From positions 1,931-65,930 of the forward strand of contig CAWEXP010000009.1 in NCBI GenBank assembly GCA_963813065.1: a DNA stretch of 64,000 nt, in the 5' to 3' direction. The position numbers and the translations under genes are program-made. Every line of letters begins with the position of its first letter. Positions within the stretch are counted from its first letter, which is position 1. A model generated the notes under the pieces. It saw only the letters and a program-made list of their open reading frames with translations. It was not told the origin of the DNA and made no database searches. Origin of the DNA: Candidatus Kaiserbacteria bacterium. Lineage in GTDB: Bacteria; Patescibacteriota; Minisyncoccia; Phycocordibacterales; Phycocordibacteraceae. Positions 1 to 18,723 of the stretch are shown piece after piece.

Positions 1-210
1 GCCGGTCTTGGTGCGGCCGCGGCCGGGATCGAGCACGGGTAACGTGGTCTCGTCGGCGAACAGTTTTGGCCGCTCCTTGAGCTTGTCGAGCAGGCGTTGG
101 GTTTCCTCCCGGCGTGGACCGTCTGGTTTTGAGGACCTGATGCTCGGATAGATCGGGCATGAATGGCGCAATGATCGTGTCCATGTCAAATACAAGCGGA
201 CACTATCTGG

Positions 211-2473: not shown

Positions 2474-2740
2474 GTCTTCGTCAACGGGATTGTAGTCGTC
2501 TGGTCGAAGGAGTTTTACGACACCTTCACCGACAGCGATGCCCTTGGCGGGCCGATACACCTCGGTGCCTTCGCCGACAAGCTGCACGTACACCACTCGG
2601 ATCTTTTGCTGCGAAGTCTGTCATCGCGCGCTCCAACGGCAGGTCAAAGCATATCCCAGTCGCACTTCAGATTCACGATCACGCCGTCTCTCCATCGCAC
2701 GAATGCGACGCTGTCTTGCCAGCCACGTCATGCGGCGGGC

Positions 2741-2800
2741 AGGCCCGATCCCAAACCTAACCCCGATCCCAAACCCAAACCTAACCCACTCCTACCCGCG
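2741..2800 (+). repeat. short tandem repeat (CCCGATCCCAAACC(C/T)AA units; encodes PNPDPKPKPNP)
   Basis: Direct visual repeat at ccgatcccaaacctaaccccgatcccaaacccaaacctaaccc. Confidence 0.4.
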
Positions 2801-3445: not shown

Positions 3446-3724
3446 TCAACGAGCGACTGCAGATGCGCCCTCTGTTGTTTGTCGGAATGCTTCAAAAGGC
3501 TGTGCGAGCCGCGATTCTTTGATTTGTTCGGGCACGTTATCGGGCAGGTTCTGGGCGGGGGTTTGCGGGCGAACCGAGTACTTGAACCCAAAGAGCGCGC
3601 TGAATCCCGCTTCGGCGACCAACGAGAGTGTCTGCGCGAAGTCGTCGTCGGTCTCTCCCGAAAAGCCGACGATCACGTCGGTCGAAATCGTGATGTCAGG
3701 GCACGCCGTCTTGAGCGCGCGCAC
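3446..3724 (-). pseudogene. internal fragment of MiaB/RimO-like radical-SAM methylthiotransferase
   Basis: The 92-aa stretch ...TDVIVGFSGETDDDFAQTLSLVAEAGFSALFGFKYSVRPQTPA... matches the C-terminal half of MiaB-family enzymes. There is no N-terminal radical-SAM region. Confidence 0.5.
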
Positions 3725-3754
3725 TCCGTTTAAAATTGTTCGCGCGTGTAGCGA

Positions 3755-4150
3755 CGGATCATGCGACGTAAAATGGCGTTCGAACCCGATTGCACCGGCA
3801 GCTCAGAAATCGCCTTCAAGATCGCGGCATCAATGGCTTTCCAGGCGGCGGCCGAGCGCGCGAAGCCCGTTATCCTCGAGCCGATTATGAAGGTCGAGGT
3901 CGTCGCGCCGGACCAGTTCATGGGCGACATCACCGGCAACATCTCGGGCAAGCGCGGCGCCATCGAGAGCATCGAAGAGCGGGGCATGAACAAGGCGATT
4001 CACGCCAAGGTGCCACTCTCTGAAATGTTCGGCTACACCACCACGCTCCGTTCGATGACCGAGGGCCGCGGCTCGATGACGATGGAATTCGACCACTACG
4101 AGACTGTGCCAAACAATGTGGCGGCGGACATCATTGCTTCGCGCAAATAA
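3755..4150 (+). pseudogene. fusA: 3'-terminal fragment of elongation factor G (fusA), last ~130 aa only
   Basis: ...SSEIAFKIAASMAFQAAAERAKPVILEPIMKVEVVAPDQFMGDITGNISGKRG...VPLSEMFGYTTTLRSMTEGRGS... is the EF-G domain IV/V C-terminus. A stop lies immediately upstream at 3749. The miaB fragment abuts on the opposite strand. Confidence 0.65.
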
Positions 4151-4235
4151 CTCATAAAAAATCGAACGCACGCGCGCTTGCCGGGGGCAAGCGCGCGTGC
4201 TAGTTTCCAGAGCGGAACATCAGTGGAGAAGGTCA

Positions 4236-4720
4236 ATGAATAAAGCCGAGCCGATTGCCGCTCTTGCGAAAAAGTTCTTACAAGACAAAAGAGGAGAACC
4301 CTGTTTGCCGATGAAGGTAGTCGGGGATTCAGATTCGAAATGCCCCTTGCAGGAAAGCGTCGCGATTGTTGGTTCAACTACGATGGCTTCCAGCTTGTCC
4401 AGTTCAGCGCCGTTATCGGATCGGCACTGGTGAATCAAGCCGACTTCAACTTTAGAGAAGCTCTCGCCACTGCGGGCGAACGAGATCCTTTCTTCGGAAC
4501 ATTGGTGCTCATCAATGGCAATTTAACCCACGTCTTGAGCTACAAGTTTTCGCATCGCCATGAACATATCGACGAAGTGCTCAAAGCACTCCTCGATCAA
4601 GGAGCGTTCGAAGATCTCTATCGCCTCGACCTCATTCATCAACTATCGTTCAGGGGCGATGAACCATCGTACATTGTCCAGATGGATTTCCGTTTTGGAT
4701 ATCCTCAAGGGCATGCATGA
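4236..4720 (+). CDS. hypothetical protein, probable frameshift near 4380
   Basis: A GGAGAAGG Shine-Dalgarno precedes the ATG at 4236. The frame 4236-4433 and the frame 4340-4720 look like one gene split by a 1-nt indel. GC is lower than in neighbours. A terminator follows. Confidence 0.3.
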
Positions 4721-4729
4721 CCCTTTACT

Positions 4730-4761
4730 CTGCCGCCGGCGCAATGCCGGCGGTTTTTTTA
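4730..4761 (+). terminator. intrinsic terminator (GCCGCCGGCGCAATGCCGGCGG + T7)
   Basis: GC-rich hairpin followed by a T-run. Confidence 0.6.
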
Positions 4762-4783
4762 TTGCAGTTGTCCCCGCGGGGTA

Positions 4784-4812
4784 TTGCATGCGCACAACTT
4801 ATTCGCTATAGT
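4784..4812 (+). promoter_or_regulatory. candidate sigma70 promoter for tuf (TTGCAT-17-TATAGT)
   Basis: -35 and -10 hexamers with a 17-nt spacer, ~70 nt upstream of the tuf ATG. Confidence 0.45.
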
Positions 4813-4884
4813 GCCCCTAACGCATTATCGCGTGGCTCGACTCGCGTCGGGATTTATTCGTGTCTTTATCCTAAATTATTCACC

Positions 4885-6084
<1,200 letters not shown>

Positions 6085-6095
6085 GTCTCAACACA

Positions 6096-6133
6096 CAAAA
6101 TGCAAGACGCGCGCCCCGTTGCGGGGCGCGCGT
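6096..6133 (+). terminator. intrinsic terminator after tuf
   Basis: aagacgcgcgccccgttgcggggcgcgcgtctt followed by a T-run. Confidence 0.7.
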
Positions 6134-6177
6134 CTTGCATTTTTTAGCCCCCTAGTGCATACTCGTGGATACGTTCT

Positions 6178-6573
6178 ATGACAGCGGCACTTACAGAAAA
6201 ACCGAAGGCGAAGCGCGTGGCGAAACCACGCGTGGCTAAGGTTGCTACTGCCGCCGCTCTCCCCGAGGAGCACAAGCTCCGCATCCGCGTTCGCGCCTAC
6301 GAACACAAGATTCTCGACGTCTCGGTCAAGCAGATTATGGATACCGCCGCTCGCTTCGACGCGAAAGTCGTTGGCCCGGTGCCACTCCCGACCGAGATCA
6401 AGCGCTGGACCGTCAATCGCTCCACTTTCGTCCACAAGGACGCGCGCGAGCAGTTCGAGATGCGCATCCACAAGCGCCTTATCGATATTTTGAATCCCTC
6501 GCCGAAAGTTATCGAGGCACTCACTAATTTGAATCTTCCTTCCGGCGTCACGATTGATGTGAAGATGGTTTAA
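6178..6573 (+). CDS. rpsJ: 30S ribosomal protein S10 with ~29-aa basic N-terminal extension
   Basis: ...LRIRVRAYEHKILDVSVKQIMDTAARFDAKVVGPVPLPTEIKRWTVNRSTFVHKDAREQFEMRIHKRLIDI... Confidence 0.9.
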   Translation: MTAALTEKPKAKRVAKPRVAKVATAAALPEEHKLRIRVRAYEHKILDVSVKQIMDTAARFDAKVVGPVPLPTEIKRWTVNRSTFVHKDAREQFEMRIHKRLIDILNPSPKVIEALTNLNLPSGVTIDVKMV

Positions 6574-6593
6574 CCTGAGCGCAGTCGAAGGTT

Positions 6594-6622
6594 CGACAAA
6601 CCGCCCGCAAGGGCGGCTTTGC
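6594..6622 (+). terminator. intrinsic terminator directly after rpsJ
   Basis: aaaccgcccgcaagggcggctttgctattt. Confidence 0.55.
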
Positions 6623-6669
6623 TATTTCCGAAATAGAGCGTACTGTCTCGGCAGGGAAGAGAGGCACAT

Positions 6670-6921
6670 ATGTTCAAACAGCTACAGGCACTATGCCAGT
6701 ACATGGTACGTCGGTGGCGCGAAATGCGTCTCAGACAGCTCGAGAAACGCTTCCAACAGCTGGAGTGGGATTATAACCACTGGAGCTGGATGCGAGACGG
6801 ATCCGGCGCACTCATTGATTGTTGCGACGAGCGTCGAGAGGTTTACAGAAGGCGTGTTCGACTCAGCGACCTTCTCGGTCTGCCGGCACCCCAGCCGATC
6901 GATAATCCATGGGCATTTTAA
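6670..6921 (+). CDS. hypothetical small protein (Trp/Arg-rich), lower GC
   Basis: 83-aa ORF between rpsJ and rplC, followed by the hairpin aaccgggccctcgtggcccggtttt. Confidence 0.3.
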   Translation: MFKQLQALCQYMVRRWREMRLRQLEKRFQQLEWDYNHWSWMRDGSGALIDCCDERREVYRRRVRLSDLLGLPAPQPIDNPWAF

Positions 6922-6976
6922 ACAACCGGGCCCTCGTGGCCCGGTTTTCCATGCTCCCATGATATAATCACCCGCA

Positions 6977-7291
6977 ATGAAGAAGGTGAAACACGCGAAA
7001 AAATACGAGCCAACACTCACCGACGTGCTCGAGGCGGTGCAGGTTGGCTTTGGGAAACATGATGAACGATTTGATTCGATGGATAGACGATTCGATACTA
7101 TAGAACAACGGCTCGATAATCACGACAGATTGCTCAAGTCTCTCCACGGGGGCCAGGAAAATCTGAAAGAGCAGGTGCAGGATATCAACCATCGCCTAAT
7201 CAAGACCCAAAACCGCGTCGAAGATATTGCCGACATTCTCGAGGTTGACCACGAGCGCCGCATCACGCGGCTCGAGAAGGCCCGCGCTTGA
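6977..7291 (+). CDS. hypothetical coiled-coil protein (paralog of 12049..12426)
   Basis: 104 aa MKKV...EPTLTDVLEAV...FD.MDRRFDTIEQRLDNHDR...HERRITRLEK. It shares N-terminal and heptad-like motifs with the ORF at 12049. GC is ~49%. Confidence 0.5.
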   Translation: MKKVKHAKKYEPTLTDVLEAVQVGFGKHDERFDSMDRRFDTIEQRLDNHDRLLKSLHGGQENLKEQVQDINHRLIKTQNRVEDIADILEVDHERRITRLEKARA

Positions 7292-7439
7292 TTTCTGCTC
7301 CGTTTGCATCTTTTAAGGCCATCGTGTAGAGTGCCCTCATCGCTACGAACCCCATGAGACAGCGAAGCTGGCTTTTACGGGGGTCCTATGGCAGAGGGTT
7401 TTTCTAACCCCGCGCCATTTGGCGCGATTTGCTTAAAAA

Positions 7440-8054
7440 ATGAAATTCATCTTGGCTCGGAAGGCGAACATGACCCGTATCTACGGGGAGGATGGTCGTG
7501 CGCTCGCAGGCACCATCCTCGTCGCCGCGCCGCTGACCGTGACGCAGGTCAAGTCGGTCGAGGGCAAGGACGGCTATGCCGCGCTCCAGGTTGGCGAGGG
7601 GACTCGTAAGACCAAGAACATCGGCAAGGCGGTCTTGGGCCACACCAAGGGCAGAGGCTATGCGGCGATTCGCGAGTTCCGCTCTGATGCCTCCGCAGAG
7701 GTTGGGAGCGAGATCAGGGTCGACGCCTTTGCGGTCGGCGATGTGGTCGAGATTTCCGGCTTGTCCAAGGGCAAGGGCTTCGCGGGCGTGGTCAAGCGCC
7801 ACGGCTTCCACGGCGGTCCGCGTAGCCACGGCCAGAAGCACTCCGAGCGCGAGCCAGGTTCGATTGGTGGCTCGAGCGGTCGCGCCGGTGGTCGCGTCGC
7901 GAAGGGTATGCGCATGGCCGGCCGCCTTGGTTCTGATCGCGTCACCGTCAAAAATCTGAAAGTGCTTGCGGTCGATGCAAGCACGAACGAGATCGTCATC
8001 TCCGGCGCGGTGCCGGGCAAGCGCGGCACGCTCCTCGAGATTGTCTCAAAATAA
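7440..8054 (+). CDS. rplC: 50S ribosomal protein L3
   Basis: 204 aa, typical L3 (…GKGFAGVVKRHGF.GGP.SHG…). Confidence 0.9.
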   Translation: MKFILARKANMTRIYGEDGRALAGTILVAAPLTVTQVKSVEGKDGYAALQVGEGTRKTKNIGKAVLGHTKGRGYAAIREFRSDASAEVGSEIRVDAFAVGDVVEISGLSKGKGFAGVVKRHGFHGGPRSHGQKHSEREPGSIGGSSGRAGGRVAKGMRMAGRLGSDRVTVKNLKVLAVDASTNEIVISGAVPGKRGTLLEIVSK

Positions 8055-8064
8055 TTTTCATACT

Positions 8065-8829
8065 ATGGCCAATGCAAAGAAAAAATTGAATAAGAAGCTC
8101 CGCAGTCACGGGAAGCCGAAGTCCGTCGTGACGCCAGGCAAGGAAAAGGCCGCCGTTGCGGGCCCGATTGAACTCGCCGTCTACTCGATGGCAGGGAAGA
8201 AGATTTCGACCATGACTCTTCCCGAGAACCTTTTCGGTGCCAAGTGGCGCCCGGATCTCGTGCACCAAGTGACGACCGCGATGCAGGCCAACTTGCGCCA
8301 GAACCGCGCTCACACCAAGGATCGCGCCGAGGTGTCTGGCGGCGGCAAGAAGCCCTGGAAGCAGAAGGGTACCGGCCAGGCACGTCATGGTTCCTCGCGT
8401 AGCCCAATCTGGCGCCACGGCGGTGTCACTTTCGGTCCGCGCTCGGAGCGTGACTACAGCGAGAAGATTAATAAGAAGATGCGCAACCAGGCGCTCATCT
8501 CGGTACTCTCGCAGAAAGCGAAAGATGGTGAGTTGATTCTTATCGACTCCTTCTCCTTCGAGGCACCGAAGACGGCCCTCGCCATCAAGGCGCTTGGTGC
8601 CATCGCGAAGGCGACCTCGCCCTCCTTGGCGACCAAGCGCGTCAACGCGGCCCTCATCGCCCTCGCCTCGCACTCGGCGAACACCATCAAGTCGTTCCAG
8701 AATATCGGGAGCGTCGCGACCGAGGAGGCACGCAACTTGAATCCGGTCGAGATTCTTTCGCACCGCTATCTCATCATCGAGAACCCGGAAGTCTCGTTCG
8801 CGACACTCTCCGCTCGCCTTAAGAAATAA
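8065..8829 (+). CDS. rplD: 50S ribosomal protein L4 with lysine-rich N-terminal extension
   Basis: MANAKKKLNKK...GGGKKPWKQKGTGQARHGS...; ATG at 8065. Confidence 0.9.
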   Translation: MANAKKKLNKKLRSHGKPKSVVTPGKEKAAVAGPIELAVYSMAGKKISTMTLPENLFGAKWRPDLVHQVTTAMQANLRQNRAHTKDRAEVSGGGKKPWKQKGTGQARHGSSRSPIWRHGGVTFGPRSERDYSEKINKKMRNQALISVLSQKAKDGELILIDSFSFEAPKTALAIKALGAIAKATSPSLATKRVNAALIALASHSANTIKSFQNIGSVATEEARNLNPVEILSHRYLIIENPEVSFATLSARLKK

Positions 8830-8831
8830 GT

Positions 8832-9203
8832 ATGGCTATTTTCTCAACCAAAAAAGAGAGCAAGAAAAAGGAAGCGGCCAAGAAGCCGATTAAGAACGCG
8901 CTCGCGAACAAGCACGCGGCCGGTATCGCGCACGAGGTGATCCAGGCGCCGTGGTTCTCGGAGAAGGCGATTCTCGGCACCGAGAAGGGCGTCTACGTCT
9001 TCGCGATTCCGCGCACGGCGACCAAGGCTGATGTCGCGGGCGCCATCAAGGAGCTCTATAAGGTCTCGCCGCGCAAGATTAACATCGTGAACCTCCCCGG
9101 CGCCCGCGTTTCTCAGCGCCGCCGCGCGGGCCACGCGACGCGCGCACGCCGCCGCAAGGCCTATGTCTACCTGAACTCGGGCGACACCATCAATCTCGCC
9201 TAA
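8832..9203 (+). CDS. rplW: 50S ribosomal protein L23
   Basis: 123 aa, uL23 fold with a basic C-terminal tail. Confidence 0.85.
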   Translation: MAIFSTKKESKKKEAAKKPIKNALANKHAAGIAHEVIQAPWFSEKAILGTEKGVYVFAIPRTATKADVAGAIKELYKVSPRKINIVNLPGARVSQRRRAGHATRARRRKAYVYLNSGDTINLA

Positions 9204-9212
9204 TATTTACTT

Positions 9213-10064
9213 ATGAAATCTTATCGCCCCACCACCAAGAGTCGCCGTAGCATGACCACGCTTCCGTACCGAGAGCTCCTCTCGGGCGATGCGCCGCACA
9301 AGCCTCTCATGAAAGTGCAGAAGCGCGAGGGCGGACGCAACAACTTCGGTCGCATCACGACGCGTCACCAGGGCGGCGGGCACAAGCGCCGCTTCCGCGA
9401 CGTTGATTTCTCGTACGATAAGAAAAATATTCCGGCCAAGATCGAGACGATCGAATACGATCCGTTCCGTTCCGCCTTCATCGCACTGGCGCTCTACGCC
9501 GATGGCTCGCGCCGTTATCACCTCGTGCCCAAGGGGATGCAGGTGGGTGATCGCTTCACGGTTGGCGAGGACGCGCCGATTATTTCGGGCAATCGCGTTC
9601 CGCTCGGCAAGATCCCGGTCGGTACGTTCATCTACAACATCGAGCTCCGCCCCGGCGCGGGCGCCATCCTCGTCCGTTCGGCCGGCAATTTCGCTGAAGT
9701 GGTCGCGCACGATGCGGGCTACGCGCAGGTCAAGCTCCCCTCGACCGAGATTCGCCGCGTCAGCGACCTCTGCTGGGCTTCGATTGGTGCGGTTGGCAAT
9801 GAGGAATACAATCTCGTCGTCATCGGCAAGGCTGGTCGCTCGCGTTGGCTCGGCATCCGCCCGACGGTGCGCGGTACCGCGATGAACCCTGTCGACCATC
9901 CGCACGGCGGCGGCGAAGGACGCCAGGGTCGCGGCCTCAAGCGCGCCAAGAGCATGTGGGGCAAGCCGACGGGCAAGGGGCAGAAGACCCGCACACCGAA
10001 GAAGTACAGCAACGTCTTCATCGTCTCGCGCCGCAAGGTTGGGAAACGAAACAAGAAAGCGTAA
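9213..10064 (+). CDS. rplB: 50S ribosomal protein L2
   Basis: 283 aa, ...GRNNFGRITTRHQGGGHKRRFR...MNPVDHPHGGGEGR... Confidence 0.95.
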   Translation: MKSYRPTTKSRRSMTTLPYRELLSGDAPHKPLMKVQKREGGRNNFGRITTRHQGGGHKRRFRDVDFSYDKKNIPAKIETIEYDPFRSAFIALALYADGSRRYHLVPKGMQVGDRFTVGEDAPIISGNRVPLGKIPVGTFIYNIELRPGAGAILVRSAGNFAEVVAHDAGYAQVKLPSTEIRRVSDLCWASIGAVGNEEYNLVVIGKAGRSRWLGIRPTVRGTAMNPVDHPHGGGEGRQGRGLKRAKSMWGKPTGKGQKTRTPKKYSNVFIVSRRKVGKRNKKA

Positions 10065-10069
10065 TTTCA

Positions 10070-10110
10070 CAAGAAAACCCCCGCGCGCCGTCTCGGCGCG
10101 CGGGGGTTTT
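10070..10110 (+). terminator. intrinsic terminator after rplB (interrupts the S10 operon)
   Basis: aaaacccccgcgcgccgtctcggcgcgcgggggtttt. Confidence 0.7.
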
Positions 10111-10171
10111 CGTTGCAGTTCTTGCATTCTTGCGTTAGGCTCTCGCAAGATGAAGCCATAAGGAGGCCGCA

Positions 10172-10729
10172 ATGAGTGACCATAAAGAGCCTGTAAACCC
10201 AAACTTGGTGCAGGTAGAATTCATTCTTGTTGACATACCTGCCAAGACAGGAATCGAGTCCGATATCCAAACGCTTGCACTCGAGCTGGCCGGCAGGTTG
10301 CCGAAGCTCGTGGTGCGGTTCTTCGATGAGCGGGGACTGGTGACGAAGCTGGTGCAAGACTATGAAGCTACGCAGTCAGCCTACGGAGTGACCATAATCG
10401 AACTGGGGAAGATGAGTTTTGGTGGTCGATTTGCAGTCTCTGAGCAACGCGATGTCGCTCGTCTTTCGCGGAAAATGGACGCACTACGAGGCCAAGCGCG
10501 CTCACTCACAGTCGGCATGTTGAGTAGTGTCACGAAAGGGTCTCGCAGAATCGCCATCGAAGATTCGCCCGATCGACCTTTGCGCATGGCAGTCGAGGCC
10601 GAGTTCGACCACCTGGTCACCACGGCCAAGAAGGCAAAAGATGTGTTCATTTTCGTCTTCAAACCGAACGATCTTCTTTCCGAGAAGAACGAAGCTGTTG
10701 TCAGTATGGTATTTAAGCTCCAGCTGTAG
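10172..10729 (+). CDS. hypothetical protein (island gene, lower GC)
   Basis: An AGGAGG Shine-Dalgarno lies 6 nt upstream. 185 aa. The gene ends in TAG followed by the hairpin CCCCGCTCTGGCGGGGATTTTATTT. Confidence 0.5.
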   Translation: MSDHKEPVNPNLVQVEFILVDIPAKTGIESDIQTLALELAGRLPKLVVRFFDERGLVTKLVQDYEATQSAYGVTIIELGKMSFGGRFAVSEQRDVARLSRKMDALRGQARSLTVGMLSSVTKGSRRIAIEDSPDRPLRMAVEAEFDHLVTTAKKAKDVFIFVFKPNDLLSEKNEAVVSMVFKLQL

Positions 10730-10815
10730 CCCTCTCCCCGCTCTGGCGGGGATTTTATTTGCCTGTAACATGTCCTTGTGGTATAAGATGGCCAGAGCAA
10801 CCGAAGGAGAAACCA

Positions 10816-11199
10816 GTGATTATTCTTGAAAAGATGTCTCGCAAAATCTCGTTCTCTGCGGGCAATCATTTCCGTCGCGCCAATTTTATCGAAGAAATTG
10901 GCGATAGCTCAATGGTGGTGTGCGTTTGGTCGCAGTGTTCATTATGGGATACAGGCGTCTTCCGTGTCAGGCATGTGCCTGTCGTCGACACGGGCGTTGA
11001 AGTGTTCCAGCGTGGTCAGCCGATTCTCGACATCACCCAACAAATCAAGGGATATGCTCCCGCGAGCCTCATCACACCTCTTGAGCACCTCACTACCAAT
11101 GTTTCCTTGTGGAAACTGAAAGTGAGTCTTGAATCATCGGTCCTCGATGCGGTTGGCAAGGTATCGTTCCCAGACTTTCTTAACATCGAGTTCGAATAA
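10816..11199 (+). CDS. hypothetical protein (island gene)
   Basis: A GTG start with a perfect AAGGAG Shine-Dalgarno 7 nt upstream. The ORF track's upstream TTG at 10759 is the less likely start. Terminator CCCCGCGCAATGCGGGGATTTTTATT follows. Confidence 0.4.
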   Translation: MIILEKMSRKISFSAGNHFRRANFIEEIGDSSMVVCVWSQCSLWDTGVFRVRHVPVVDTGVEVFQRGQPILDITQQIKGYAPASLITPLEHLTTNVSLWKLKVSLESSVLDAVGKVSFPDFLNIEFE

Positions 11200-11228
11200 C
11201 GTGCCTGCCCCGCGCAATGCGGGGATTT

Positions 11229-11996
11229 TTATTGTTGATACTGCGGTTGAAGAATGGTGCGAATCTGCGAGACCGGGATGCGGAGCGTCTGCGGGCCCGA
11301 GGAGTACGGCGCGACCTGGTAGGGAGCGAAGAGGATAATGAAATCCTTGTTGTCGAAGAAGAAATTCTGGAAATTAGCGGCTTCGGGCGTCGTGCCGGGG
11401 TTGATGAAGGTCGGGTCAGCGCTATCGCCGATGATGGCGGGGAGCATCTGCCGCGCGAGGGTCGAGAGTGTGCCCAGATAATCGGAACCGCTCAAGAAAA
11501 TATCGCTCAAGGCGAGTGCTTGTCCGGTCGAGGTGTCGAAGGTGAGGGTCGAGAAGCTCGTGTTGGGGTGCGCGCCGAGCGTATCTTCGTAGGTGGTGAA
11601 GATGTAGGAAACCGTGCGGGGCGAAGAAGCGATGAGGTAGGTAATCTGGAGCGATTCTTTGCTTCCTTTATCGAATCCCATCATCGAAATGTCGCGCAGT
11701 GAGAGATGGTCGAAGTTGCCCTGCGTCTTGAAGTCGCTAATAATCCCGCTGACGAGCGATTGGATCTTCGCAATGGCGGCGCGGTCGGCCGCGGCACCCG
11801 CAGTTTCAGCGAGCGGGGTCGAGGTCGGATAGTTGGCGGCAATGTCGTAGTACGGCGCGTGCTCGGTGTCGCCGCCCTCTGGAAGCGTGAGAACGACGGG
11901 CGCCGAGACTGGCGTCGGCTTCACTGCCGCGTAGAACACAATCCCCACCACAATCACGACCAGCACCGCGCCACCGATAATCAGTTCTTTTTTCAT
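11229..11996 (-). CDS. membrane-anchored DUF3298/DUF4163-like (RsiV/PdaC-type) protein
   Basis: An N-terminal TM helix, then ...YYDIAANYP...ITYLIASSPRTVSYIFTTYEDTLGAHPNTSFSTLTFD... Confidence 0.5.
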   Translation of the reverse strand: MKKELIIGGAVLVVIVVGIVFYAAVKPTPVSAPVVLTLPEGGDTEHAPYYDIAANYPTSTPLAETAGAAADRAAIAKIQSLVSGIISDFKTQGNFDHLSLRDISMMGFDKGSKESLQITYLIASSPRTVSYIFTTYEDTLGAHPNTSFSTLTFDTSTGQALALSDIFLSGSDYLGTLSTLARQMLPAIIGDSADPTFINPGTTPEAANFQNFFFDNKDFIILFAPYQVAPYSSGPQTLRIPVSQIRTILQPQYQQ

Positions 11997-12048
11997 GTGA
12001 ACAGTCTAGCAAATCGGGCGAATATGGGCGCGTGATAGAATAACGAGC

Positions 12049-12426
12049 ATGAAGAAGGTCACAAAATCGATCGCGATTAAGGAGCCCACCCTTACGGAGG
12101 TTCTCGCTGTTATGAATGAGCGTTTCGACGTGGCTGAATCTCGTATGGAAAATAGATTTGGTGACATTGAAATCCGCATCGACAAACGTTTCAATTCTTT
12201 GAATGAGCGCTCGAACGGAATCGACGCGCGACTTGGTGTTATTGAAAGGCGGGCTGGTAAAATTGAGAACACTCTCGGCGATATACAAGATGATTTGACT
12301 TCCGCACTTGCCGCCACCGATAACGATGGTTCTGCGATTTTGAATCACGAACACCGCATCGCGCACCTAGAGAAATTGAGCAATATTAAAATCGTTCCAC
12401 CCCGGCATCTCGTCGGTCTTGAATAG
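12049..12426 (+). CDS. hypothetical coiled-coil protein (paralog of 6977..7291)
   Basis: MKKV...KEPTLTEVLAVMNERFD...RFGDIEIRIDKRFNSL...HEHRIAHLEK. A bidirectional terminator with a GATTAC loop follows. Confidence 0.5.
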   Translation: MKKVTKSIAIKEPTLTEVLAVMNERFDVAESRMENRFGDIEIRIDKRFNSLNERSNGIDARLGVIERRAGKIENTLGDIQDDLTSALAATDNDGSAILNHEHRIAHLEKLSNIKIVPPRHLVGLE

Positions 12427-12458
12427 AAAAACCCCGCCGATTACGGCGGGGTATCGTC

Positions 12459-12776
12459 TTACTCTTCGTTTGGGTTATAACTGAGTAAACGACCTCTTCT
12501 GGTTTGCGTGTTGTAAGTGCCTTTCAGGTATAAGTATTCACGATTTTTATACCGCTCAAGGGACGGTGCATTGACCAGATGGCCGTTACATACGATTTCC
12601 CACGGCTCGCCCTCACCAGAGCCTCGCTTAACTATGTCGATGGTTAGACTGTAGACATATTCTCCATCTCCGCCGTGGAAATGGAATTTCTGGGGAACGC
12701 CCTGAGCGAGTCCTGGAATTAACAACCCCCATTGCGAAGGACCGTTCACAACGAGATAATTCACTCCATGGGCCAT
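12459..12776 (-). CDS. hypothetical protein
   Basis: 105-aa ORF convergent with the 12049 ORF. Confidence 0.35.
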   Translation of the reverse strand: MAHGVNYLVVNGPSQWGLLIPGLAQGVPQKFHFHGGDGEYVYSLTIDIVKRGSGEGEPWEIVCNGHLVNAPSLERYKNREYLYLKGTYNTQTRRGRLLSYNPNEE

Positions 12777-12860
12777 CCGACCCTCCTTTGATACATGATC
12801 TCCTCATCGGTGCGGAAATCGAACACCCTGACTCCTCGCGGAGCGACCTACCCATACAGA

Positions 12861-13923
12861 CGCGCATTCTCATATGAATCCGAACACTCGCGGTATTGTG
12901 CGTGCATGAAAAAAGAAACGTTGGAAGCAGCTGAGCACGAGCGAGCGGTCTGAGATTTCAATACTGAAGCGCAAGAAGTATTCGCTCCGTGCGATTGCTC
13001 GAGCTCTTGGCCGCAGTGTTTCCAGCATCTCGGAAGAGTTGAAGAGGAATCGAGTGCGAGGTTTGTATGATGTACAGAAGGCTGCACACAAGGCGTATGC
13101 ACGAAGAAAGTACGCGAAGTATCAAGGCATGAAGATCGTCGGGCATGCGGGTCTGCGTTCACTCGTGGAAGAGCTGTTGTATGACGACCAATCGCCCGAG
13201 AACATCGCCGGAAGAGTCCGGAAGTATGCCAAGCGTCTGCCGACCATCTCGAAAGACGGCGTGTACCGATTCATCAAAAGCGTGTATGGCCGGAGAATTG
13301 AGTCGCATCGGAACGCGCGAAAGCAGAAACGAAGAAAGTATCACCCGAGAGTCGCGGCTCTTTCAGAGCGAACCTTCATCGACAAACGGCCCAGGCATAT
13401 CAACGCTCGTTCGAGGAGCGGAGATGTCGAGGCTGACTTCATTGTCTCGGGCAAGACTGGCAGAGGCATCCTGCTCGTGGTGGTCGACCGGAAGCTCCGC
13501 GTCACGTTCATCGAACGCATTCTCGATGTGTCAGTGGCGAACGTGCACCGGGCATTCCTCCGCATTCAACAGAGATTCCCCGAGCTCCGCACCATCACCA
13601 CTGACAACGATATTTTGTTCCAGATCATCAGGCACTCGCCACTCTTCTGGGGGTGCGCATCTATTTCTGTCGGCCGTATCACTCCTGGGAGAAAGGAACG
13701 GTTGAGAATACAAACGGCGTCATACGCAAAGACATACCGAAAGGCGCAAACATTTCTCGCTATTCAAAGGCATTTATACAAAAGCTCGAGGACAAGCTGA
13801 ACCGGAGGATACTGAAATGCCTCCAATACAAAACTCCGGCGGAAGCATTAGCTGCGGTACGGAAACGAAAAAAGCGCCGAGGCGCATGAAATTCGAGTGT
13901 TCGGATTGAGCCCGTCGAGCGGG
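12861..13923 (+). mobile_element. IS30-family insertion sequence, copy 1 (1063 bp; 3-bp TSD AGA)
   Basis: Ends CGCGCATTCTCATATGAATCCGAACACTCG ... CGAGTGTTCGGATTGAGCCCGTCGAGCGGG share the inverted core AATCCGAACACTCG. The flanks are acAGA|IS|AGAta. The copy is identical to 40332-41395 except for a 1-bp deletion. Confidence 0.85.
12906..13889 (+). pseudogene. IS30 family transposase, copy 1 (extra 1-bp deletion at ~13618 splits the DDE domain)
   Basis: The HTH region ...KKKRWKQLSTSERSEISILKRKKYSLRAIARALGRSVSSISEELKRN... lies in the +1 frame relative to the ATG at 12906. The DDE region ...TTDNDILF follows. This copy reads ttccagatc where copy 2 reads ttccgagatc. Confidence 0.8.
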
Positions 13924-14016
13924 AGATAGGAATTGATTTCAATATACACCCTTATGCAAATCTGTCAAAGTTTTAAAATGGGCTAGGGATTCTCGGGCAA
14001 TTTGGATTTGCCCGAG

Positions 14017-14045
14017 TTGACGGCTGGGAGAGACTCGTGTATCTT
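14017..14045 (+). promoter_or_regulatory. candidate promoter (TTGACG-17-TATCTT) re-initiating transcription of rpsS and downstream genes after the IS30/island insertion
   Basis: -35/-10-like hexamers with 17-nt spacing, 36 nt upstream of rpsS. Confidence 0.35.
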
Positions 14046-14049
14046 GCCT

Positions 14050-14078
14050 CTATCCCGTTCGGCGGGATATTTATTTCA
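14050..14078 (+). promoter_or_regulatory. terminator-like hairpin in the rpsS leader (possible attenuator)
   Basis: CCCGTTCGGCGGGATATTTATTT lies between the candidate promoter and the rpsS ATG. It is the same motif family as the hairpins at 10733 and 11204. Confidence 0.35.
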
Positions 14079-14080
14079 CT

Positions 14081-14485
14081 ATGGCACGATCACTCAAGAA
14101 GGGACCCTACGTGGACGTCAAACTCCTCAAAAAGGTCCAAAAAGCTCAGTCCCGCACCGCGGGGGTGATTAAGACGTGGGCGCGCGGAAGCCGAATCAGC
14201 CCGGAAATGGTTGGTTTCACCTTCGGCGTCCACAACGGCAAGAGCCACATTGAGGTCCTCGTCTCTGAGGAGATGGTGGGGCATCGGCTCGGTGAATTCT
14301 CGCCGACCAAGAAGTTCATCCGCCACGGTGGCAAGATGCAGAAGGAGCTCGAACAGAAGCGCCAGGAGTCGGAGGTCGCCGCCGCCAAGGCCGCCTCTGC
14401 CGCTCCGCCGCTAAGAAATAATTTGTATGAAAGCGACTCTCGAAAGCCACAATCAGTCCCCGCGCAAGGTCCGCCTCGTGGCTGA
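14081..14485 (+). CDS. rpsS: 30S ribosomal protein S19; 3' boundary uncertain (reads 59 nt into rplV)
   Basis: [19 protein letters not shown]...[45 protein letters not shown]... The ORF runs ~40 aa past the usual S19 end to a TGA at 14483. Confidence 0.7.
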
Positions 14486-14744
14486 CCTCGTGAAAGGGAA
14501 GAAGGTCCCGGCGGCGCTCTCGGCGCTCGCGTTCCTCCCCAAGCGCGCGAGCGAGCCAGTCGCCAAGCTCATCAAGAGCGCGGCCGCTAATGCCAAGGAC
14601 AAGGGCGAGAACCCGAAGAGCTCACGATAGGTCAATCACCCGTCGAGAGCGCGGAAATGTCGAAGCGTTTCATGCCGCCACGCCTTCGGCCGCGCCTCGG
14701 CGATTCGCCACAAGAAGAGCCGCATTAAGGTCGTCCTCGCGTAA
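14427..14744 (+). pseudogene. rplV: 50S ribosomal protein L22 with an in-frame TAG at 14628-14630
   Basis: [27 protein letters not shown]...[55 protein letters not shown]. Homology to L22 continues in the same frame across the stop. Confidence 0.7.
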
Positions 14745-14749
14745 CTTCT

Positions 14750-15439
14750 ATGACTCACACCGTACATCCCTATGCGCACCGCCTCGGCATCATCCGCGAC
14801 TGGAAGAGCCGTTGGTTCGCCGCCGACAAGAAGAGCTACCGCGAGAATATCAAGGTAGACGCCGCACTCCGCGCCTTCCTCGAGAAGAAGCTCCACGGTA
14901 CCTACACCTCGGGTATCGACATCGAGCGCTCGGCGACCGAGCTCCGCGTGATCCTGGCCACCGCCCGCCCCGGCTCGTGATTGGTCGCTCGGGCGAGAAC
15001 GCCGCCGAGCTCCGCGCCGAGATCACTAAGGTCGCCCGCAAGGTGGCGCCTCTTGATCGCCGCACGGTGAAGTTCGATATCGTCGAAGTGCGCCAGCCGG
15101 AGACAGACGCGGCGGTCGTCGCGGCGATGGTCGCCGAAGGCCTTGAGAAGCGTATGCCCTTCCGCCGCGTGCTCAAGCAGACGGTCGAGAAAGTGAAGGC
15201 CGTCCGCGAGGTCGAGGGCGTGCGCATCACGATCAGTGGCCGCCTCGGCGGCGCCGAGATGTCGCGCAAAGAGGAAATCAAGCGCGGACGCATCCCGCTC
15301 CAGACCTTCCGTGCGGACATCGACTGGCCTATGGCAAAGCTCCAGCTCCGTACGCGTCATCGACATCAAGGTTTGGATTTACCGCGGCAATATCTTCGCC
15401 GAGAAGAAGGCGGCAAGCCCGAGCCTCTCGCGGGCCTAA
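14750..15439 (+). pseudogene. rpsC: 30S ribosomal protein S3 with at least two frameshifts
   Basis: The N-terminus MTHTVHPYAHRLGIIRDWKSRWFA...ILATARPG ends at 14980. The next segment LVIGRSGENAAELRAEITK...GRLGGAEMSRKEEIKRGRIPLQTFRADID reads in another frame; a 1-nt deletion occurs at ggc(c)tcgtg. The C-terminus VIDIKVWIYRGNIF is in a third frame. Confidence 0.75.
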
Positions 15440-15448
15440 TACATTGCT

Positions 15449-15861
15449 ATGCTTTTCCCTAAAAAGTAAAACACCGCAAGTGGCAGACTCAGCGCAAGAG
15501 CGCTAGCGTCTCGCGCGCCCGGACACGCGCGGTACCTCAGTCTCTTCGGCTCCTTCGGACTCAAGGCGCTCACTTCGGCGCGTGTCACGAGCAACCAGAT
15601 TAAGCGGCGCGCAAAGTGCTCACCCGCGCAGTGGCCAAGAGCGGCAAGCTCTGATCGCATCTTCCCGATCGCCCCGTCACGGCGAAGCCGGCGGAGGTGG
15701 GCATGGGTTCGGGCAAGGGCGACCCGAAGCTCTACGTCTGAGGTGCGCCAGGTCGCGTACTCTTTGAGATTGACGGTGTCAGCGAGGCGGTGGCCCGCGC
15801 ACACCTCATCCAGGCAGGGTCGAAAGTGCCCGTGAAGACGAGCATCGTCGTGCGCCGTTAA
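15449..15861 (+). pseudogene. rplP: 50S ribosomal protein L16 with at least 2-3 frameshifts and two in-frame TGA codons
   Basis: MLFPKK then a stop. VKHRK... is in another frame and ...LSLFGSFGLKALTSARVTSNQI in a third. The segment [63 protein letters not shown]...VKTSIVVRR follows. The first TGA aligns with the conserved Trp of uL16. Confidence 0.7.
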
Positions 15862-15893
15862 TTGCAGTATTTCAATATATATGGCAAAGAGAG

Positions 15894-16085
15894 ATGACAT
15901 GCATAAGAAGACAGATCAGGAACATGCGCGCACTCCTCGCGAGCGAGCGGGTGAATCTGCACAAACTCCGCTTCGAGGCGGCGGGTGCGCGCCCCAAGGA
16001 TTCGAGCGCGCCGCGCGTGGCACGGAAGCAGATCGCACGTATACTGACCGAACAGCGTTCGCGCGTCATCAAGGCCACAAAATAA
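15894..16085 (+). CDS. rpmC: 50S ribosomal protein L29
   Basis: ...NLHKLRFEAAGARPKDSSAPRVARKQIARILT... has the uL29 LRFQ...G...VRR.IAR..T pattern. AAGAGAG lies upstream of the ATG. Confidence 0.55.
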   Translation: MTCIRRQIRNMRALLASERVNLHKLRFEAAGARPKDSSAPRVARKQIARILTEQRSRVIKATK

Positions 16086-16087
16086 AT

Positions 16088-16351
16088 ATGGAAAACAAAA
16101 CCCCTCGTCCCCAATCGTTCACTGGCACCGTCGTCAAGACGGCGATGAAGGTACGGCCACCGTGCGCGTCGACCGCTCGTGAAGCATGCGAAGTACAAGA
16201 AGTATTTCGTTCGCTCCAAGAAGTACTCGTGCACGATGCGGGCAACACGGCGGCGGTGGGCGACAAGGTCACTATCGTTGCGACGCGCCCCATTTCGAAG
16301 TTGAAGCGCTTCGCGATTGCTTCAACGACGCTCAGCACCGGCAAAAAATAA
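16088..16351 (+). pseudogene. rpsQ: 30S ribosomal protein S17 with three 1-nt deletions
   Basis: Homologous segments in three frames: MENKTPRPQSFTGTVVKTAMK, GTATVRVDRS, VKHAKYKKYFVRSKKYS, and VHDAGNTAAVGDKVTIVATRPISKLKRF. Every shift goes in the same -1 direction. Confidence 0.65.
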
Positions 16352-16352
16352 T

Positions 16353-16730
16353 ATGTTGCAACCTCAATCAATCGTCATGGTGGCAGATAACTCCGGAGGG
16401 CAGATTGCCCGCATCTTCAAGGTGCCCGGAGGTTCTAAGCGCCGCTATGCTGCCATCGGCGATATCGTCGTCGTTTCGATCCAGACCGCTCAGCCGCGCA
16501 AGGCGGTGAAAAAGAAAGAGATTTACAAGGCGGTGGTCGTCCGTCAGGTCAAGCCGTTTGCCCGCAAAGACGGTTCCTACATTCGCTTCGACGAGAACGC
16601 CGTGGTGCTGATCGAGAAGCAGGGCAAGGAGATGGGCCCCAAGGGTAACCGCGTCTTCGGTCCCGTACCGCGCGAGCTCACCGACCGCGGCTGGCACAAC
16701 ATCGCCTCGATTGCTCCGGAAGTCGTCTAA
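16353..16730 (+). CDS. rplN: 50S ribosomal protein L14
   Basis: MLQPQSIVMVADNSGG...GPVPREL...; intact. Confidence 0.9.
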   Translation: MLQPQSIVMVADNSGGQIARIFKVPGGSKRRYAAIGDIVVVSIQTAQPRKAVKKKEIYKAVVVRQVKPFARKDGSYIRFDENAVVLIEKQGKEMGPKGNRVFGPVPRELTDRGWHNIASIAPEVV

Positions 16731-16740
16731 TATTTTTAGT

Positions 16741-16965
16741 ATGAAACTCCACGTTAAAAAAGGCGACACGGTGAAGATTCTTTCCGGCAAGGACAAGGGC
16801 AAGAAAGGTCTCGTTATGCGCGCTCTGCCTAAGGAAGGGAAGGTTGTTGTCGAGGGCATTGCACTCGTCAAGCGCCATCTGCGCAAGCAGGGCGGCCAAT
16901 CGGGACACATCGTCGAGCGACCCGCCGCTATCGACGCTTCGAATGTCGCAAAGATCGAGAAATAA
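16741..16965 (+). CDS. rplX: 50S ribosomal protein L24
   Basis: MKLHVKKGDTVKILSGKDKGKKG...VEGIALVKRH... Confidence 0.9.
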   Translation: MKLHVKKGDTVKILSGKDKGKKGLVMRALPKEGKVVVEGIALVKRHLRKQGGQSGHIVERPAAIDASNVAKIEK

Positions 16966-16968
16966 TTT

Positions 16969-17541
16969 ATGAACATCACCAAACAACGCCAGCAAACCGC
17001 CTACGATGCGCTCCGCGCAGACTTCGGCTACACCTCGCCGATGCAGTCGCCGCGCGTGTTGAAGGCCATTGTCTCCACCGGCGTCGGTAAGAAGCGCGAT
17101 AAGAAGCAGATCGAGCTCATCAGCGAGCGCCTTGCCCGCATCACGGGACAGAAGGCGGCACCGCGCTCGGCCAAGCTCTCCATTGCATCCTTCAAGGTCC
17201 GCCAGGGCGATACGGTTGGCCTCCAGGTCACGCTCCATGGCGCACGCATGTTCGACTTCCTCGACAAGCTCATCCACATCGCGCTCCCGCGCACGCGCGA
17301 CTTCCGCGGTATTGCGGCCTCGGCCATCGACGACATGGGCAATATTACGATTGGCATCAAGGAGAACACCATCTTCCCGGAGACCTCCGATGAAGACCTT
17401 AAAGATGTCTTCGGTCTCGCCATCACCATCGTCACCACGGCCAAGTCGAAGAACGAGGCCGATGCCTTCCTCCGCCACCTCGGCGTCCCGCTCCGCCCGC
17501 TCGAAGAGCCCAAGGTGAAAGTACGAGCGAAGAAAAAATAA
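16969..17541 (+). CDS. rplE: 50S ribosomal protein L5
   Basis: 190 aa uL5; intact. Confidence 0.9.
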   Translation: MNITKQRQQTAYDALRADFGYTSPMQSPRVLKAIVSTGVGKKRDKKQIELISERLARITGQKAAPRSAKLSIASFKVRQGDTVGLQVTLHGARMFDFLDKLIHIALPRTRDFRGIAASAIDDMGNITIGIKENTIFPETSDEDLKDVFGLAITIVTTAKSKNEADAFLRHLGVPLRPLEEPKVKVRAKKK

Positions 17542-17760
17542 TCTCGTTTTACAAAAATTGAAATGGCCCGTGCGAGCGCGGGTCATTTCGTTTGCATTGT
17601 AGTACACGACGTTCTCACGGAGGCGCGCTATGCACAGGCATCCACTAAATACTGCTATAGCAGAAAATAAAGGATAGTGCGTAAAAGGATGGGAAGTTGC
17701 GTTTCTGCCAAGTTCGGGGTATGGTCGCGGCAGACGAAACGCTTACGAGAGGTGAATTCG

Positions 17761-17922
17761 ATGAGCATCTTTTCTATTTTAGGAATTGCGGCCTTGGTAA
17801 TAGGTCTACTCACACATCAAACTCCAAGTACTCGTGCCATCATTCTTTCCGCGTGTCTCGTCTTCTTCGGTATTGGATTCTTCTGGCCATCATTCTTGAT
17901 GGTGCCACCATACTGGAATTAA
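17761..17922 (+). CDS. small hydrophobic protein (2 TM) inserted between rplE and rpsN
   Basis: A GAGGTG Shine-Dalgarno precedes MSIFSILGIAALVIGLLTHQTPSTRAIILSACLVFFGIGFFWPSFLMVPPYWN. It is flanked by hairpins at 17563-17590 and 17931-17957. Confidence 0.3.
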   Translation: MSIFSILGIAALVIGLLTHQTPSTRAIILSACLVFFGIGFFWPSFLMVPPYWN

Positions 17923-18034
17923 GGACATCAAACCCCGCTTCGGTGGGGTCTTTTTATAGGCAGGGGAGCGACGTTTGACGCCGGAAACCCTTGGTGATAC
18001 AGTGCTCGCACGCTCCTCGGAGCTTTTATTTTGT

Positions 18035-18304
18035 ATGGCAAAGAAATCCCAGATTGCACGGCAGGCAAAACGCGAGAAGCTCGTGGCGAAATTCGCTACT
18101 AAGCGCGCGGCTCTTAAGTCTGCCGGTGACTGGGATGGCCTGCAGGCGCTCCCGAAGAACTCTTCGCCGGTGCGGTTGAAGAATCGTTGCTCCGCGACCG
18201 GTCGTAGCCGCGGGTATATGCGCGCCTTTGGGCTCTCGCGCATCGAGTTCCGCGAGCTCGCACGCGCGGGCAAGATTCCGGGCGTGAAGAAGGCTTCTTG
18301 GTAA
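18035..18304 (+). CDS. rpsN: 30S ribosomal protein S14 (long form)
   Basis: [20 protein letters not shown]...[39 protein letters not shown]. Confidence 0.85.
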
Positions 18305-18318
18305 TTTTCGATACTGCT

Positions 18319-18723
18319 ATGACCACCGACAAAGTTGGCGATTTCATCATCCGTTTGCAGAATGCGAGCATGATTGGCCGCGCTACGACGAGCGCACCGT
18401 ATTCCAAGCACCTCGAATCCATCGCGCGCAAGCTGAAGGCGCTCGGCTTTGTGAGCGAGGTTGCGGTCGATGCTAAAGATGAAGCGGGCGTGAAGAAGAA
18501 TCTCATCGTCACCCTCGCGTACGATGCGCGCGGCAAGGCGAAGATTCACGGTGTGAAGCGCATCTCTAAGCCGGGTCGCCGCCTCTATGTCGGTCACACT
18601 GACGCCCACTCGGTCGAGGGTGGCACGGGCGCACGCATCATCTCGACGCCTTCCGGTATCTACTCGGATCGCGACGCGCGCTCCAAGCGTGTCGGTGGCG
18701 AGAACATGTTCGAAATTTGGTAA
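18319..18723 (+). CDS. rpsH: 30S ribosomal protein S8
   Basis: MTTDKVGDFIIRLQNASMIG...; the ORF-track start at 18298 is an extension. Confidence 0.9.
   Translation: MTTDKVGDFIIRLQNASMIGRATTSAPYSKHLESIARKLKALGFVSEVAVDAKDEAGVKKNLIVTLAYDARGKAKIHGVKRISKPGRRLYVGHTDAHSVEGGTGARIISTPSGIYSDRDARSKRVGGENMFEIW

Follow-up and report, generated by a model that had tools for sequence, protein, structure and literature searches.

The rplB-rpsS junction as a probable transcription-unit boundary and accessory-gene hotspot in a clade of Candidate Phyla Radiation bacteria

The genes for ribosomal proteins L2 (rplB) and S19 (rpsS) lie in the syntenic ribosomal-protein block on which the placement of uncultivated bacteria in the tree of life widely relies, and their junction is usually regarded as invariant. 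In the 64,000-nt stretch of genomic DNA analysed here (the window), which derives from a Candidate Phyla Radiation (CPR) bacterium near Candidatus Kaiserbacteria, the two genes are separated by 4,016 bp of accessory genes, including a gene for a DUF3298-domain protein, a coiled-coil minigene and an insertion sequence (IS) of the IS30 family. The L2 protein encoded in the window is 70-71% identical to its best genome matches and 80-85% identical to those of a few metagenome contigs. The question raised by this locus is whether one recently acquired island broke an intact junction and left the downstream half of the operon with a new promoter, as an original prediction made from the nucleotide sequence had proposed, or whether the junction had been open before the present genes arrived. 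The analysis led with good confidence to the second view, namely that in this clade the rplB|rpsS junction has long separated two transcription units and serves as an insertion-tolerant hotspot for accessory genes, and that the island is a layered mosaic of which the IS30 element is the latest part.

The rplB-rpsS junction in the clade

The distance between the L2 and S19 genes was measured in 150 loci (designated here by L numbers), with the clade defined by an L2 identity of at least 60% (n = 22). The gap in the clade had a median of 741 nt and a maximum of 4,048 nt and was larger than 500 nt in 16 of the 22 loci, versus a median of 27.5 nt, a maximum of 146 nt and no gap above 500 nt among 128 loci of other bacteria, three other CPR genomes included. 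As the junction was already open in 19 of the 22 clade members, the claim that the island had broken a conserved junction was not upheld. In the same loci, the L3|L4, L4|L23, L23|L2, S19|L22, L22|S3 and S3|L16 gaps never exceeded 250 nt. Two more junctions follow the pattern of L2|S19: among 15 clade loci, five have an S10|L3 gap larger than 500 nt, and the L5|S14 gap had a median of 686 nt in the clade versus 51 nt in the other bacteria.

The large-gap loci (16/22) share their flanking core genes and differ in the Pfam content that these enclose, which is the pattern expected of a core-interval hotspot. The cargo is of a kind typical for accessory or mobile DNA. Pfam matches in the rplB-rpsS gap comprised MazE/MazF (L001), a 1,007-aa PKD/CARDB protein together with a Y1 transposase (L012), an N6 DNA methylase fragment (L087), a DAG kinase (L008) and DUF5674 (L010), while L006 holds a coiled-coil open reading frame (ORF) recognised from its translation only; in L088 a ParE toxin was found in the S10|L3 gap. 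Nearer to the window, L081 (L2 85% identical) has an empty rplB-rpsS spacer of 200 nt, L082 (82%) a truncated DUF3298 gene only, L083 (80%) a 141-aa ORF, a coiled-coil gene and an antisense DUF3298 gene, and L164 (80%) a coiled-coil gene, an antisense DUF3298 gene and a gene for an 826-aa secreted protein; L170, whose S19 is 83% identical to that of the window, has a coiled-coil gene and an antisense DUF3298 gene directly before rpsS. Identical gene content in all relatives had been named by the original prediction as the finding that would speak against it, and the content was found to differ.

Upstream of rpsS, positions 13950-14080 of the window align base for base with both the empty-site locus L081 and L083, including the -35 and -10 elements and the leader hairpin. 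Since the aligned leader is present in L081, the predicted promoter and hairpin are older than the island. The original prediction was right that rpsS has a promoter-like site of its own, which is of sigma-70 type, but this predicted promoter is not new. The comparison with island-free sister genomes that it had recommended could be made with L081, which turned out to carry the promoter and leader already. A promoter-like pattern (TTGNNN-16..18-TANNNT at most 120 nt from rpsS) occurs in 19 of the 22 clade members versus 7.9% of random windows. L084, L085 and L091, in which rplB and rpsS are adjacent, also have such a site, with the -35 element lying within the 3' end of rplB in the first two and just past the rplB stop codon in the third.

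The 5' leader of rpsS was similarly conserved in position. Of the 19 leaders with the promoter pattern, 13 have a short G+C hairpin followed by a T-run, against a random background of 8.8%, and in most of these 13 it starts 4-9 nt after the -10 element. At least eight different stem sequences occur, each of them self-complementary, so that pairing is kept by differing sequences at a conserved position, the pattern by which autoregulatory ribosomal-protein leader RNAs are recognised. In the window the hairpin ends 11 nt before the ATG, and rpsS lacks a Shine-Dalgarno sequence; none was found before rpsS in any of the 22 clade members. The leader hairpins are weak (-7.5 to -13.5 kcal/mol) and, as predicted structures, are closer to stabilisers of the 5' terminus or to mild attenuators than to full terminators, and the variability of their stem sequences argues against a sequence-specific binding protein. 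An Rfam scan of positions 5500-18500 at E up to 1 returned no ribosomal leader; its single hit, to rdlD in the terminator of rplB, was due to chance. The same order of promoter, hairpin, U-tract and ATG precedes rpsN at 17976-18036. In L082 (2530-2602), the loop of the rpsS leader hairpin holds a 34-nt nested hairpin, with the outer stem and the U-tract kept.

At the other border, the strong terminator that had been placed at the end of rplB was borne out (Table 1), and equally strong terminators were found directly after rplB in 10 of 21 relatives examined. The proposed arrangement is therefore one in which the rplB unit would end at a strong intrinsic terminator and rpsS would open a new unit with its own sigma-70-type promoter, a short 5' hairpin and a U-tract, and without a Shine-Dalgarno sequence. 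An insertion into the spacer would then not be polar on the synthesis of ribosomal proteins, so insertions would be tolerated there and different accessory genes would be collected in each lineage. Judged by this predicted layout, the expression of rpsS would be independent of the island.

Contents of the gap

Table 1. Features of the rplB-rpsS gap and its borders (positions in the window)
Feature	Position	Strand	Evidence and remarks
rplB (ribosomal protein L2), left border	9213-10064	+	TIGR01171, 371.7 bits
Predicted intrinsic terminator of rplB	10074-10110	+	G+C stem of 12 bp between A and T runs; -43.2 kcal/mol
A185, hypothetical protein	10172-10729	+	ORF; AAGGAGG at 10160-10166, 5 nt before ATG
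Predicted terminator T1, after A185	10735-10760 (stem to 10752)	+	TCCCCGC-tctg-GCGGGGA, then TTTTATTT; generic CCCCGC/GCGGGG form
B127	10816-11199	+	GTG start; GAAGGAG 6 nt upstream
Predicted terminator T2, after B127	11208-11233 (stem to 11224)	+	CCCCGCG-caa-TGCGGGG, then ATTTTTATT
DUF3298-domain protein, membrane-anchored, RsiV-like ectodomain	11229-11996	-	PF11738, 3.7e-13
cc2, coiled-coil minigene	12049-12426 (12034-12426 with promoter)	+	Paralogue of cc1
Predicted bidirectional terminator for cc2 and E105	12431-12452	both	CCCCGC/GCGGGG stem with T-run
E105	12459-12776	-	Antisense ORF; AAGGAGGG upstream
IS30-family insertion sequence, copy 1	12860-13923	+	1,064 bp; NCBIfam transpos_IS30
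Divergent promoter-like site	13941-13968	-	TTGACA-16-TATATT; 11/12 consensus positions; faces the IS
Promoter-like site of rpsS	14017-14045	+	TTGACG-17-TATCTT; position conserved in L081, L082 and L083
5' leader of rpsS	14051-14080	+	8-bp hairpin at 14051-14069 and U-rich tract to ATG; -10.5 kcal/mol
rpsS (ribosomal protein S19), right border	14081-14485	+	Pfam Ribosomal_S19, 3.8e-33

The original prediction had described lower-GC cargo, with an IS30 element, splitting rplB from rpsS, and this description was accurate, as was its gene list (two hypothetical genes with Shine-Dalgarno sequences, a DUF3298 gene, a coiled-coil gene, an antisense gene and IS30). With a G+C content of 0.525, versus 0.574 for the whole window, the gap is the lowest 4-kb stretch of the window, and only 0.3% of 4,016-nt sliding windows are equally low. 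At third codon positions (GC3), the DUF3298 gene reaches a host-like 0.75, in the range of the ribosomal-protein genes (0.70-0.85), and the values for A185 (0.60), B127 (0.56), cc2 (0.50), E105 (0.49) and the IS (0.52) are lower. Low GC, together with a GC3 of 0.49-0.60 in four of the five gap genes, constitutes the atypical base composition used to recognise genomic islands. A classical integrase-mediated island was nevertheless not supported, since no integrase domain was found in any ORF of the gap by Pfam and NCBIfam searches, no tRNA gene lies near it (the only one in the window is at 59578), and a search for direct repeats that might represent att-like sites around the island or its parts gave only 16-nt terminator arms. 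Nor was a recognisable defence island or prophage remnant supported, as PADLOC and PHROGs searches with all cargo proteins yielded nothing beyond weak coiled-coil noise.

The implied view of the island as one unit did not hold, as its genes appear to fall into older residents of the site and genome-specific additions. The first layer would be an old module of the antisense DUF3298 gene and the coiled-coil gene, common to relatives with an L2 about 80% identical (the module itself being 41-57% identical). The DUF3298 protein matched PF11738 over residues 164-243 (50.7 bits versus a cutoff of 24.1) and fell short of the full-length RsiV model NF052658 (27 bits versus a cutoff of 250), and no sigma-factor gene, the sigV neighbour, was found among the gap ORFs searched. 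As homologues with 41-57% identity lie antisense within the rplB-rpsS gap of L082, L083, L164 and L170, the gene appears to be an old resident of the site.

The coiled-coil gene cc2 is probably an old resident as well; relatives with 47-54% identity lie directly 3' of rplB in L164 and L170. Its family, made up of small coiled-coil proteins, numbers about 160 cluster representatives, and it has a paralogue in the window, cc1 (6977-7291, 34% identity), in the rpsJ-rplC gap. An extended -10 element, TGATAGAAT, was recognised at 12034-12052, 7 nt before the ATG of cc2, which has no Shine-Dalgarno sequence. For cc1, an extended -10 element, TGATATAAT, lies at 6960-6979; in both genes the element ends 7-8 nt before the ATG, and cc1 likewise lacks a Shine-Dalgarno sequence. 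This combination suggests that the mRNAs of both genes are probably leaderless. The coiled-coil gene of L164 has a similar layout (TACAAT, 7 nt, ATG). In the same locus, the gene for the 826-aa protein (3152-5632), with PG_binding_1 and Hint-type domains, follows the coiled-coil/DUF3298 pair, and the contig ends before rpsS. This gene, whose product starts with MSR, was considered as an intein-bearing rpsS and rejected, its translation being that of a secreted PG-binding protein.

The second layer would consist of genome-specific genes of lower GC3, namely the co-directional A185 and B127, each with a Shine-Dalgarno sequence and a predicted terminator, and the antisense E105. A search of 5.8 billion proteins returned a single distant homologue of A185 (31% identity, in an uninformative context) and only the self-match for B127 and for E105; A185 also gave no match in Pfam, NCBIfam, PADLOC or PHROGs. 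AlphaFold models were poor for A185 (pLDDT 39) and of low confidence for E105 (all-beta, pLDDT 55). The three genes and the IS are specific to this genome.

The third and most recent layer would be the IS30-family element, inserted by simple transposition with duplication of AG at 12858-12859 and 13924-13925. A second copy at 41396-40332 on the minus strand is identical except for one 1-nt gap and is flanked by GT/GT, so that both copies have the short 2-bp direct target duplications of IS30. Because each has its own matching duplication, both copies are taken to have arisen by simple transposition, and the matching pairs also argue against a wrong join at the repeat. Like other members of the family, the element measures about 1.06 kb, occurs here in two near-identical copies and encodes a transposase with helix-turn-helix and DDE domains; the former was matched by Pfam HTH_38 (1.9e-10) at residues 1-33 of the 12952-13800 translation. 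The transposase of copy 2 (40369-41304, minus strand) scored 185.6 bits against NF033563 (cutoff 80) over profile positions 1-264 of 267, and the larger and smaller fragments of copy 1 scored 97.3 and 68.3 bits. Perfect 14-nt inverted repeats (12877-12890/13894-13907) lie near the ends and, as a difference from the family at large, are subterminal, 16-17 nt inside the ends of the two-copy alignment, where the outermost bases match only in part. Also unlike the family, the transposase is encoded in the +1 frame with respect to the ATG, with a run of six A residues (A6) following the ATG in both copies (12906 in copy 1), and copy 1 has an extra frameshift, one G being missing near 13627. Neither copy therefore holds a single intact transposase reading frame. 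At 12906-12953 and 41350-41303, one A fewer would restore an intact ORF (MKKKRWKQLSTSERSEISILK...), and the A6 run may be a slippage site, a shared defect or mutation, or a sequencing error; slippage, mutation or sequencing error may likewise account for the missing G of copy 1.

Between the IS and rpsS, the divergent promoter-like site facing the IS falls inside the block conserved with L081 and L083, and in L083 its equivalent faces the DUF3298 gene. The predicted start site of this promoter is followed, after about 11 nt, by the IS; were the IS absent, transcription from the promoter would enter E105 after a leader of about 95 nt. From this position of the IS between the promoter-like site and E105, its insertion probably cut E105 off from its promoter.

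The terminators inside the island had been noted for an unusual shared sequence, as if made from one template. Such elements are indeed present at the three places named, and their common core (a CCCCGC stem, GCGGGG and a T-run) is not unusual in this genome: GCGGGGATTTTTATT occurs 13 times in the window with up to three mismatches, versus 1.65 expected, and CCCCGC/GCGGGG stems with T-runs were also found at 12431, 17932, 30149, 34148, 34676, 47927 and elsewhere. The third of these terminators (T3, 14051) is the rpsS leader hairpin that is found in relatives, including one without the island. A single template for T1, T2 and T3 was rejected on these genome-wide counts and on the match of T3 to the leaders of relatives; the three follow the general terminator style of the genome.

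The surrounding ribosomal region

Junctions other than rplB-rpsS are open in the window as well. The rpsJ-rplC junction (6574-7439, 866 nt) holds an 84-aa gene without family match (6671-6922) in addition to cc1, and L010, L011, L012 and L088 have 0.9-1.5 kb at this position. The rplC leader (7304-7440) is structured, about 100 nt long, follows TTGCAT-17-TAGAGT and ends in a CGCGCC-attt-GGCGCG hairpin and an A/U-rich tract ahead of the ATG; a near-identical hairpin, CGCGCC-aaat-CGCGCG, occurs at 983-998, just before the start of an IS66 transposase gene. At the rplE-rpsN junction (17542-18036, 493 nt), two predicted terminators enclose a 53-aa membrane ORF (17761-17922), and the rpsN leader consists of TTGACG-17-TACAGT, a hairpin, a U-tract and the ATG.

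Near the left end of the window (584-4150), an IS66-family element (TnpB at 584-1006, transposase at 1003-2760) is followed by about 1 kb of unassigned sequence and then by only the C-terminal 116 residues of EF-G (3800-4147). This EF-G fragment is directly upstream of tuf, and fusA appears truncated. To the right of the gap, between 14385 and 16230, at least ten 1-nt indels or in-frame stops were found in the 3' end of rpsS and in rplV, rpsC, rplP and rpsQ, mostly deletions and none in homopolymers; the genes on either side, from L3 to L2 and from L14 to SecY, are intact. As the affected proteins show a normal identity to those of relatives (62-83%) after frame correction, sequencing or polishing errors are favoured over pseudogenes. 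Exact look-ups of L2, A185, S19, L14 and L5 in an independent contig index found none of them, and in a cluster look-up S19, L5 and the L22 and S3 fragments occurred only in the NCBI/ENA record. An independent assembly, a Logan contig of run ERR11630400, matched window positions 10391-12889 at 100% and ended 30 nt inside the IS, as is expected at a repeat.

Alternative explanations and significance

Several observations weigh against the reading of rplB|rpsS as a long-standing, insertion-tolerant boundary. The relatives are loci retrieved by L2 similarity, and the counts were made without a phylogeny; in three of them (L084, L085 and L091) rplB and rpsS are nearly adjacent, so the boundary may have opened repeatedly rather than once in an ancestor. 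In the window, the coiled-coil gene and the DUF3298 gene stand in another relative order than in L083, L164 and L170, which would require a rearrangement or re-acquisition of cc2 if it is an old resident, and its low GC3 fits re-acquisition. A leader hairpin with a U-tract resembles a terminator placed downstream of a promoter, for which this reading does not account, and all promoters, terminators and start sites are predictions from consensus or structure.

A farther-reaching extension was considered as well, and is offered tentatively as a rather doubtful possibility. It holds that the S10-spc cluster of the clade has been rewired into separately controlled units (S10 | L3-L2 | S19-... | S14-...), that the rpsS/rpsN leader (sigma-70 promoter, 5'-terminal hairpin, U-tract and AUG without Shine-Dalgarno sequence) is a previously undescribed regulatory device, acting either as a promoter-proximal attenuator or as a stabiliser together with Shine-Dalgarno-independent initiation, and that the boundaries are lasting safe harbours for accessory genes, among them the recurrent coiled-coil and DUF3298 pair. 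The S10 and spc operons are each a single unit in E. coli and Bacillus. The cluster in the window is not organised as an E. coli-type S10 operon, as pairs of predicted terminators and promoters, with cargo, occur at S10|L3 and L2|S19. As in the E. coli S10 leader, where attenuation is mediated by L4, a hairpin and a U-tract lie between the promoter and the first ribosomal-protein gene in the layout of an attenuator; in contrast to that leader, the present one is about 30 nt long, has its hairpin at the very 5' end, varies in its stem between relatives, has no Rfam match and precedes rpsS as the first gene instead of rpsJ. Stem-loops at the 5' terminus stabilise mRNA in the ompA 5' untranslated region of E. 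coli and the aprE leader of B. subtilis, both of which have a Shine-Dalgarno sequence. The rpsS and rpsN leaders would resemble these in having a predicted hairpin a few nucleotides from the predicted 5' end, followed by an unstructured A/U-rich stretch to the start codon, and differ from them in lacking the Shine-Dalgarno sequence.

A functional tie between the coiled-coil/DUF3298 pair and the ribosomal cluster, by which selection would hold both genes in place (their products being, for example, associated with the ribosome or coupled to growth rate), is improbable. The pair recurs at the exact site in at least four genomes, the paralogue cc1 occupies another ribosomal gap (S10|L3), and cc1 gave a weak, below-threshold match to a YibL-type ribosome-associated protein (E 0.0099). 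However, the DUF3298 gene is antisense and encodes a membrane-anchored protein of extracytoplasmic type, each gene has its own predicted promoter and terminator, L081 lacks both genes and L082 retains DUF3298 in truncated form. More distant relatives carry unrelated cargo, and P0009, a member of the coiled-coil family, adjoins scpA and not ribosomal genes.

A decaying ribosomal cluster amid IS expansion, with selection relaxed and a functional copy elsewhere, is hardly probable either. This explanation would draw together the indels and in-frame stops between about 14385 and 16230, the reduced EF-G adjoining an IS66 transposase and the 1-nt deletion in IS30 copy 1. The frame-corrected proteins nevertheless show no excess of substitutions, which fits sequencing or polishing errors better; L3, L4, L23, L2, L14, L5, S8, L6, L15 and SecY are intact; and the damaged fragments are confined to the NCBI/ENA record and do not appear in the Logan assembly of the reads. 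Decay would, moreover, need a duplicated 20-kb ribosomal cluster, and we know of no precedent for this in a small CPR genome.

The explanation from which the question started, that a single recently acquired island broke an intact junction and that the terminators and a new promoter for the downstream half of the operon came with it or were created by it, was judged very improbable. It would agree with a GC content below that of every other 4-kb stretch in the window, a recently active IS and three genes with few or no relatives among 5.8 billion proteins. It is opposed by the homology of the 13950-14080 promoter and leader block to the empty-site locus and the presence of the promoter pattern in 19 of 22 relatives, by a junction that is open in most of the clade, by DUF3298 (L082, L083, L164, L170) and coiled-coil genes at the same site in relatives, by the absence of integrase, tRNA and flanking direct repeats, and by a terminator motif that is found genome-wide. 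An assembly artefact, in which a wrong join at the repeated IS30 would have placed the cargo falsely between rplB and rpsS, is extremely improbable, for although a two-copy exact repeat of about 1 kb lies beyond the span of short-read assemblers, the Logan contig ends at the IS edge and the contig has many indels in nearby genes, the AG/AG and GT/GT duplications are not expected from swapped flanks, four relatives, each assembled independently, have DUF3298/coiled-coil genes in their rplB-rpsS gap, and the sequence to the right of the IS is the conserved block upstream of rpsS.

The preferred reading, a long-standing boundary that collects accessory genes, has its closest known parallel in Gammaproteobacteria and Bacilli, where insertions of several genes separate operons of the translation-gene supercluster (PMC6735719, PMC8046335). 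There, too, accessory genes gather at the borders of transcription units, gene order within units is fixed and the insertions are lineage-specific. The borders described here differ in lying inside the canonical S10 operon (rplB|rpsS, S10|L3) or spc operon (L5|S14), and in belonging to a clade of uncultivated CPR bacteria, in which toxin-antitoxin genes, IS elements and genes without relatives occupy the gaps. No report of such a break was found in the literature searched. Chromosomal hotspots of horizontal gene transfer, which Oliveira et al. 2017 are said to have described as core-gene intervals with variable content, are similar in that the same core pair encloses unrelated accessory and mobile genes and no dedicated integrase is needed; they are unlike the present case in that the flanks are here near-universally adjacent ribosomal-protein genes and the comparison extends across genera rather than strains of one species.

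Taken alone, the window is ordinary, an IS30 insertion and a few accessory genes in a tolerant spacer, and represents a local variant of known genome behaviour. Across the CPR clade, with rplB-rpsS, S10|L3 and L5|S14 open, ribosomal operon architecture is less fixed than assumed, and pipelines for binning and annotation should allow for cargo of kilobase size within the "ribosomal block". The conserved, hairpin-first leaders of rpsS and rpsN, which lack Shine-Dalgarno sequences, provide a concrete set for studying translation initiation and the regulation of ribosomal proteins in CPR bacteria.

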